Assembly: GCF_988243305.1 (NCBI RefSeq)
Contig: NZ_OZ547136.1
Direction: 5' to 3' (one strand)
Length of the DNA stretch: 64,000 nucleotides
In this document: positions 26,989 to 29,179 of the stretch, in pieces
Layout: each line of letters starts with the position of its first letter
How positions within the stretch are numbered: the first letter of the stretch is position 1
Translations under genes and position numbers: made by a program
Notes under the pieces: generated by a model
Databases searched by the model: none
The model's input: only the letters and a program-made list of their open reading frames with translations
Told to the model about the DNA's origin: nothing

Positions 26989-27018
26989 GAAGTGCTCCAT
27001 CGCTAGTTGAAGCACATT

Positions 27019-27055
27019 GCCGGATGCGACGCTTGCCGCGTCTTATCCGGCCTAC
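27019..27055. repeat. REP element
   Basis: gccggatgcgacgcttgccgcgtcttatccggcctac, canonical REP palindrome between convergent yfgD and hda. Confidence 0.7.
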
Positions 27056-27093
27056 GAATACTATGGGTGCATATCCGACAATAAACGTCTTGT

Positions 27094-27795
27094 CTACAGT
27101 TTCAGAATTTCTTTCACAAACGGAATGGTCAGCTTACGTTGCGCGGTAATCGACGCACGATCCAACTGATCCAACGTCATAAATAACGTGCGCATCTCTC
27201 TGTCGAGCCGCTTCAGCAAGAAACGCCCCACATCTTCCGGCAGTTCAAAACCACGCAAACGCGCGCGTAACTGTAGCGCCTGCAACTTATCTTCATCAGA
27301 AAGTGGCTGCAATTTGTAGATCTGCCCCCAGTCGAGACGCGACGCGAGATCCGGTAATCCAAGATTCAACTGCCGCGGTGGACGATCGCCGGTGATTAAC
27401 AACCGTGTTTTGCCCGATTCCAGAATTCGATTGTAGAGATCGAAAATCGCCATCTCCCACAACTCATCGCCTGCAATACACTCAATGTTGTCGATACAGA
27501 CCAGCGACAAATGCTCCATACCGTCGAGCACTTCCGGAACAAACCAGGTGCGTTTATCCAGCGGGACATAGCCCACCGCATCGCCACGCTGCGACAATTC
27601 CGCGCAAGCCGCGTGCAGCAGATGGCTGCGCCCCGCGCCTTCGCGTGCCCAGAGATAGATGTAACCGCTATGTTCCTGACGCAGCACGTTTTGCAGCGCG
27701 GCCAGTAAAGAGGAGTTATCCCCCGGCCAGAAACTTGCAAAGGTTTCGTCGTCAGGAAGATAAAGTGGCAAAGAGAGCTGTGCCGGTGTTTTCAG
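27094..27795 (-). CDS. hda: DnaA-inactivating AAA+ protein Hda (RIDA), CTG start
   Basis: ORF 27094..27840; the conserved Hda N-terminus (L/M)[21 protein letters not shown] begins at a CTG codon (minus strand, plus coordinates 27793-27795); Walker-like box [10 protein letters not shown]. Confidence 0.8.
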
Positions 27796-27889
27796 AGATA
27801 CCTCAACCAGGATTTCACAAAATCGCGAGAAGTTTACCACAGAATCCCATGATGTTTGAACCGGGCAGCAACACTGCCCGGTCGGTACA

Positions 27890-29179
27890 TTATTTGTCTG
27901 TTATATCCGCGTCTTCTGCGTCCAGCACCACTTCTTCAGGGCGCAGCACACTAATCATTTTGAAGATCAAACTTAAGCCGATACCGACGATGGTCGCCAG
28001 CGCCATACCTTTCAGCTCCGCCGCGCCGATGTTTACCTTCGCGCCACTGACACCGATGATCAAAATCACGGAAGTCAGGATCAGGTTCTGTGCTTTGTTG
28101 TAATCCACTTTCGATTCGATCAAAACACGAATACCGGAAGCACCGATGACACCATAAAGCAGCAGCGAAACGCCGCCCATCACCGGCAATGGGATCATCT
28201 GGATAGCAGCAGCCAGTTTACCGACGCAGGAAAGCAGGATAGCGAAAATCGCCGCCCCGCCGATAACCCAGGTACTGTAAACACGGGTGATCGCCATCAC
28301 GCCAATGTTTTCCCCGTAGGTGGTGTTTGGCGTGGAGCCAAAGAAGCCGGAGATCACGGTCGACAAGCCGTTAGCAAACATCGAACGGTGCAGACCTGGA
28401 TCGCGCAGCAGATCTTTTTTGACGATATTAGCCGTTACCACCAGGTGCCCTACGTGTTCGGCAATAACCACTAACGCCGCTGGCAGAATAGTCAGAATGG
28501 CAAACCACTCGAAGCGCGGCGTATAGAGGGTTGGCAGCGCAAACCAGTGAGCATTAATAATCGGCGTGGTATCGACAATTCCCATTGCGAAAGAGAGCGC
28601 GTAACCCACCAGCACGCCAATTAAAATCGGGATAATTGCCAGGAAACCACGAAACAGCACGGAACCTAAAACCGTGACTGCCAGGGTGGTAATTGAGATG
28701 ATGATGGTTTTGGAGTCTGGCGTTTGCCCTTCAGCCGGGAGTAAACCTGCCATACCGGCAGCTACGCCCGCCAGCTCCAGACCGATGACGGCAACGATTG
28801 CGCCCATTGCCGCAGGTGGAAACAGCACGTCCAGCCAGCCGGTCCCCGCTTTCTTCACGATAAAAGAAACCAGGCAGAACAGCACGCCGCACATAATAAA
28901 GCCGCCCAGCGCGACTTCATACCCTAACGGCAACAGTAACAATACCGGTGAAATAAAGGCAAAGCTGGAACCAAGATAAGCCGGGATTTTCCCTTTACAG
29001 ATGAAGAGATACAGCAGCGTTCCTATACCGTTAAATAACAGTACAGTCGCCGGGTTAATATGAAATAAGACGGGCACCAGGACGGTTGCACCAAACATGG
29101 CGAACAAATGTTGCAAACTAAGCGGGATTGTCTGTAAAAGTGGCGGTCTTTCACTCACCCCGATAGCACGGCGCGTCAT
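27890..29179 (-). CDS. uraA: uracil:proton symporter (NCS2 family)
   Basis: ORF 27890..29221; start at the internal Met ([20 protein letters not shown]), 429 aa. Confidence 0.9.

Follow-up and report, generated by a model that had tools for sequence, protein, structure and literature searches.

We confirm that hda, whose product inactivates DnaA in the RIDA (regulatory inactivation of DnaA) system, starts at a CUG codon at 27795..27793 on the minus strand of the window, the whole stretch of 64,000 nucleotides that we analysed. We consider it highly probable that the full explanation holds, namely that Hda is translated from this CUG through a GAGGU Shine–Dalgarno (SD) sequence, that the CUG acts as a throttle and that the 15 codons upstream are leader and promoter sequence. 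No feature of the sequence speaks against this explanation. For E. coli, the CUG start is correct but has been known since 2008 and stands in the reference annotation. Knowledge of E. coli itself therefore gains nothing new, as the start is published and curated and the residue numbering in use already presupposes it. The main features of the gene are as follows.

27094..27795, minus strand: hda coding sequence as translated, 233 codons plus a TAG stop, taken from the ORF and its translation and equal in extent to the RefSeq hda CDS (702 nt)
27793..27795, minus strand: CTG (CUG) start codon of hda, with which the RefSeq CDS opens, invariant in 87 of 87 loci and given in EcoGene 3.0
27763..27780, minus strand: beta-clamp-binding motif QLSLPL, codons 6–11 counted from the CTG, taken from the translation

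The RefSeq/PGAP annotation of E. coli gives hda a CDS of 702 nt that encodes 233 aa (WP_001307333.1), and its first base corresponds to position 27795 of the window. In the K-12 MG1655 reference, hda (b2496) lies at 2618075..2618776 on the minus strand and likewise encodes 233 aa, under the revised protein version NP_416991.2. EcoGene 3.0 lists the hda CTG start as shown by experiment, citing Su'etsugu et al. 2008 (J Biol Chem 283:36118). A first-pass annotation, made from the sequence of the window alone, had placed the start at the CTG at 27793–27795, and the RefSeq and K-12 annotations at that base, EcoGene 3.0 and our comparative tests all agree with this placement. E. coli K-12 has one more confirmed CTG start, that of yfjD, which is chromosomal, like that of hda (EcoGene 3.0); it was found by sequence conservation and inspection of the ribosome-binding site and was confirmed by start-codon mutagenesis (EcoGene 3.0). 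The two genes differ in that yfjD encodes an unrelated protein and that no report ties it to control of the dosage of a replication regulator. The Hda and DnaA reviews and papers that we searched contained no statement on CUG, the start codon or abundance, and the text of a Ribo-RET preprint did not mention hda. A CUG discussed in a Caulobacter dnaA paper is irrelevant to hda, as it sits in dnaA and is non-functional there.

The identity of the gene is clear from its product and its surroundings. The window DNA is E. coli, with a match of at least 95% identity in 5,425 of 5,426 complete genomes. On the minus strand, 27795..27793 reads ctg and is followed by aaa aca ccg gca cag ctc tct ttg cca ctt, so that QLSLPL (residues 6–11) begins five codons 3' of the CTG. 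The product matched the NCBIfam equivalog NF005982 over its full length (472.9 bits; cutoff 268) as well as TIGR03420 (281.7 bits; cutoff 194.8), and the protein cluster that contains it is recorded with Pfam PF00308 and PF22688. Upstream of hda lies uraA, which ends at 27890, and downstream, on the other strand, lie arsC/yfgD and bepA. The K-12 hda gene, which is curated in EcoGene, EcoCyc and RefSeq, has the same start codon, SD and 233-aa length, and the order upp–uraA–hda–arsC/yfgD–bepA is common to both. Beyond the family, Yersinia and Dickeya retain uraA, arsC/yfgD and bepA as neighbours, and in Erwinia hda is flanked by uraA and bepA. The window Hda is identical to K-12 Hda at 232 of 233 residues, and from this identity to a characterised protein we infer that it would stimulate DnaA-ATP hydrolysis in a clamp-dependent manner (RIDA activity).

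Residue numbering in the field already fits the short form. The role of the clamp-binding motif, a hexapeptide QL[SP]LPL that Hda function needs, has been described (PMC3836487), and the AAA+ box VII arginine finger is known as R153 (PMC3836487). Residue 153 of the window protein counted from the CTG is the Arg in PDLASR153LDWG, so this numbering fits the 233-aa form only.

The first-pass annotation had also noted that the longest ORF begins 15 codons upstream of the CTG. This is the case: the longest ORF runs from 27840 to 27094 on the minus strand, opens with GTG and encodes a 248-aa Hda in which the CTG is codon 16. Initiation at this GTG (27840..27838), with the CTG as an internal Leu codon, is the original annotation and the output of automatic gene callers. 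It has in its favour that it gives the longest ORF with a canonical start and that the 248-aa form is very common in public databases, with at least 1,000 contigs carrying it. We nevertheless regard it as extremely unlikely, as the literature and RefSeq reject it and comparison of orthologues, detailed here, speaks against it at several points.

The comparison covered hda loci with flanking DNA from 80 Enterobacteriaceae species representatives (80 of 413 relatives), to which we added six further genera from five other Enterobacterales families (Yersinia, Erwinia, Proteus, Xenorhabdus, Dickeya and Hafnia). The aligned start codon was CTG in all 82 loci and in all six further genera. The presence of a CTG proves little by itself, because this is a very common codon; it is its conservation that exceeds chance. 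We defined conserved Leu positions as those with Leu in at least 95% of 87 loci, of which Hda has 37. Position 1 was the only one of these to use a single codon (CTG in 87 of 87), whereas each of the other 36 used three to six Leu codons, with a major-codon frequency of at most 0.86. An internal Leu CTG, as the GTG start would have it, would be expected to drift synonymously like these 36. Moreover, none of the 87 loci had TTG, GTG or ATG in place of the start CTG, although a single mutation would produce any of these, and this points to maintenance of the weak codon itself.

The region between the GTG and the CTG behaved differently.

27796..27840, minus strand: apparently spurious 15-codon N-terminal extension (opening with GTG 27840..27838), of low and patchy conservation, with indels and stops

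The extension was frame-shifted or stopped in most orthologues. In 53 of 83 loci, the nearest upstream in-frame stop preceded the CTG by 7 or 14 codons, and 46 of the 83 had no in-frame ATG, GTG or TTG between the upstream stop and the CTG. The earlier statement that the upstream 15 codons are not conserved is thus borne out by indels and in-frame stops. Judged from its sequence, the extension appears to be non-coding and to consist of 5' leader and promoter sequence. An alignment of orthologues had been proposed as a check on the CTG start, and its outcome, an invariant codon, an invariant GAGGT and a broken extension, supports that start strongly.

The position of the clamp motif distinguishes the two starts further. 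Among 137 full-length distant Hda representatives (about 40–55% identity), we located the motif in 125, and its Gln lay at a median position of 5; 95 of these sequences had it at position 8 or lower, and three had it at position 16 or higher. In E. coli this Gln is at position 6 when counted from the CTG and at position 21 when counted from the GTG, the latter far from the family median. Caulobacter crescentus HdaA, an Hda-family RIDA factor, carries its clamp motif QFKLPL at residues 4–9, near the N terminus as in Hda (PMC3836487), which supports a very short N-terminal lead as a family rule. HdaA nevertheless belongs to a separate equivalog family, as the window protein scored far below the cutoffs of NF051883 and NF006571, and, unlike for E. 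coli hda, no CUG start has been reported for it.

In three distant lineages (L091:169, L092:301 and L093:301; 52–63% identity), the called starts were GTG, GTG and TTG, respectively, and L092 had a TGnTACACT element followed by an ...ATCT GTG layout, similar to the arrangement in E. coli. With n = 3 lineages, this is only a hint that avoidance of AUG in hda may be general and family-wide.

Conservation on the downstream side likewise bears on where translation begins. Some pipelines use a canonical start within the gene, such as the TTG at residue 9 (27771..27769), and give forms of 225, 221 or 200 aa. Such truncated forms are present in databases and the TTG is in frame in 45 of 83 loci. However, residues 2–8 are conserved as coding sequence in the orthologues, and the residue-9 codon itself varies among species (TTG, CTG or TTA). 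The next canonical in-frame start downstream of the CTG lies between residue 9 and residue 38, within or past QLSLPL, so that starting there would cut or remove a motif needed for Hda function; the TTG also has no SD. We give this downstream start virtually no chance of being correct.

Pairing with the 3' end of 16S rRNA again favoured the CTG.

27800..27804, minus strand: Shine–Dalgarno sequence GAGGT, separated from the CTG by 4 nt (by 5 nt when measured from the GAGG core), invariant in an 81-sequence alignment

The SD reads GAGGTG in the six further genera. Of four candidate starts, the CTG at 27795..27793 had the best predicted anti-SD duplex (−6.9 kcal/mol). The SD-like match upstream of the GTG was weak (−4.0 kcal/mol), a value reached by 19% of random 20-mers, and the duplexes for the in-frame CTG at 27810 and the residue-9 TTG were +0.3 and −1.7 kcal/mol, respectively. 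Two near-cognate codons within the extension, the second in-frame CTG (27810) and an ATC (27813), were rejected as starts, as they have no SD (+0.3 kcal/mol) and lie in an unconserved region. A small ATG ORF in another frame (27850..27815; 11 codons) was also rejected as a uORF, as its ATG is unconserved even in E. albertii. Folding of the leader mRNA was not stronger than that of shuffled sequences (z = +1.5; 192 of 200 shuffles folded at least as well). This test led us to reject structure-based control of the start; the start region looks open, with the weakness residing in the codon.

The upstream region contains two further elements, one of which overlaps the GTG.

27831..27839, minus strand: extended −10-like element TGgTAAACT, which shares bases with the GTG that opens the long ORF
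27860..27882, minus strand: perfect 9-bp GC-rich hairpin, ACCGGGCAG tgttg CTGCCCGGT, directly 3' of the uraA stop codon (27892..27890)

The motif TGnTAAACT was nearly invariant across 81 sequences, with only the base n free. A free middle base is the pattern of an extended −10 element and is not codon-like, which is a further point against translation through the GTG at 27840..27838, the codon that supplies the TG of the element. Five of the six further genera retain TGnTAnnnT. The exception, Dickeya, reads ATGCTAAACT, in which the TAAACT hexamer is kept, the TG is shifted and ATGC stands before the hexamer. The block is probably the hda promoter. If it is, transcription of hda would start near 27826..27824 and give a leader of about 30 nt, and the GTG, lying inside the −10-like element, would probably be absent from hda's own mRNA. 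A scan of 27700..28000 for consensus −35/−10 promoters and for terminators returned nothing, the −10-like element lacking a good −35. The SMRT-Cappable-seq supplements had no entry for hda or uraA, and none of the Cappable-seq entries listed was near K-12 position 2618800. Between the −10-like element and the SD, we also noted a leader motif, CGnG(A/T)TTTT (27811..27830, minus strand), that is fairly well conserved in Enterobacteriaceae and gave no convincing match to a DnaA box.

The hairpin lies directly upstream of the putative hda promoter and probably marks the end of the uraA transcript. Its GCCCGG is conserved, but it has no T tail and fails the intrinsic-terminator criteria of the scan, which makes read-through from uraA conceivable. 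This bears on dual initiation, in which translation would begin mostly at the CUG, while E. coli and the species nearest to it would also make a minor 248-aa isoform from uraA read-through transcripts. Such an isoform is compatible with the GTG frame, which is open in E. coli, Escherichia sp. and E. albertii, and in E. coli the sequence by itself would permit traces of a 248-aa product. However, the extension is unconserved beyond the genus, SD pairing at the GTG is poor, and a lineage-restricted isoform of a regulator in an essential pathway would be incidental at best. We therefore judge dual initiation to be very unlikely and retain the CUG as the start of Hda.

On the other side of the gene, in the spacer between hda and arsC (about 27000..27093), the sequence of K-12-type and many other E. 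coli genomes is 32 bases longer than that of the window; in these genomes the match is 983 in length, compared with 951, and is broken into two parts. The spacer resembles a REP-type palindromic element (gccggataagacgcggcaagcgtcgcatccggca), and the difference looks like a polymorphism in REP copy number or an indel.

The start of hda had been described as easily mis-annotated, and public databases indeed hold versions of Hda of 248, 241, 235, 225, 221 and 200 aa. Entries of 248 aa come from E. coli and Shigella and those of 241 aa from Salmonella, and truncations of 200–225 aa also occur. A 235-aa form is very widespread in Enterobacterales outside the Enterobacteriaceae, including Yersinia, Erwinia, Hafnia, Dickeya, Xenorhabdus and Proteus. 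This form opens at the GTG of GAG GTG NTT CTG (L083–L088, positions 401–409), which is the 3' end of the GAGGTG SD, and it has no SD of its own. The sequence context indicates that the 235-aa annotation probably starts wrongly and that the true start is the conserved CTG two codons later. PGAP gives 233 aa in some species, 235 aa in others and both in some. The NCBIfam model NF005982 itself has 235 positions, and residues 2–233 of the window protein align to its positions 4–235. The practical value of our analysis thus lies in annotation quality: many wrong Hda N termini remain in public databases.

In the mechanism that we propose, the 30S subunit would be positioned by the GAGGU SD, 4 nt upstream of the CUG, and the initiator fMet-tRNA would read the CUG with a first-position mismatch. 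The product would be a protein of 233 aa with Met first and QLSLPL at residues 6–11. In E. coli reporters, initiation at CUG amounts to about 1–2% of that at AUG, with a range of 0.02–3% across constructs; because CUG is such a poor initiator, the codon could act as a built-in throttle that would keep Hda scarce. These values are in keeping with the suggestion of the first-pass annotation that a weak start fits low expression. We infer that low Hda dosage is the purpose of the weak codon. Low dosage is plausible for Hda, which works as a catalyst together with the DNA-loaded clamp and is a competitor for the binding cleft of the clamp. In the abstract of their 2008 study, Su'etsugu and colleagues reportedly placed the start at a CUG downstream of the annotated codon and estimated about 100 Hda molecules per cell.

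A weak start codon that sets protein level has a precedent in infC, the gene for IF3, in which a near-cognate AUU start is conserved and weak, IF3-discriminated initiation determines how much protein is made. The weak codon of infC forms part of a feedback loop in which IF3 represses its own AUU start, and we know of no infC-like loop for hda. A stronger version of our proposal, in which the frozen CUG would be a regulatory sensor and Hda synthesis would be tuned by start-codon discrimination (IF3 and initiator-tRNA fidelity), seems to us unlikely.

The codon next to the start differs in the window from its usual form.

27790..27792, minus strand: codon 2, AAA (Lys), a rare N2K allele of a conserved AAC/AAT (Asn) codon

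Codon 2 was Asn (AAC or AAT) in all 82 other Enterobacteriaceae and E. coli loci and in the six further genera; in K-12 and nearly all other E. coli strains the codon is AAC, against AAA in the window. N2K was the sole difference between the window Hda and WP_001307333.1. One detail of the first-pass annotation therefore needs correction: it had quoted KTPAQ... as the conserved Hda N terminus, whereas the conserved form is M-N-TPAQ and the Lys is a rare allele of the window. None of about 5,411 complete E. coli genomes matched the 60 nt around the start of the window gene exactly. Exact N2K proteins are nonetheless present in public data, and a 248-aa N2K form is found on 13 contigs. Contigs that share more than 99.9% identity with the window encode the Lys as AAA, and one contig of only 98.2% identity uses AAG. 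The occurrence of two codons in two backgrounds suggests two independent origins, that is, that N2K arose twice. The substitution adjoins the start codon and lies four residues before the clamp motif. On the unlikely sensor reading, a recurrent N2K beside the start codon could represent adaptive tuning of the CUG setting.

The order-wide, invariant CTG of hda is clean evidence that purifying selection can hold a weak start codon in place. The combination seen here, an invariant codon amid drifting synonymous codons together with an invariant SD, offers a recipe for finding other non-canonical starts. If the sensor reading were true, the capacity of the cell to inactivate DnaA would be coupled to its translational or growth state.
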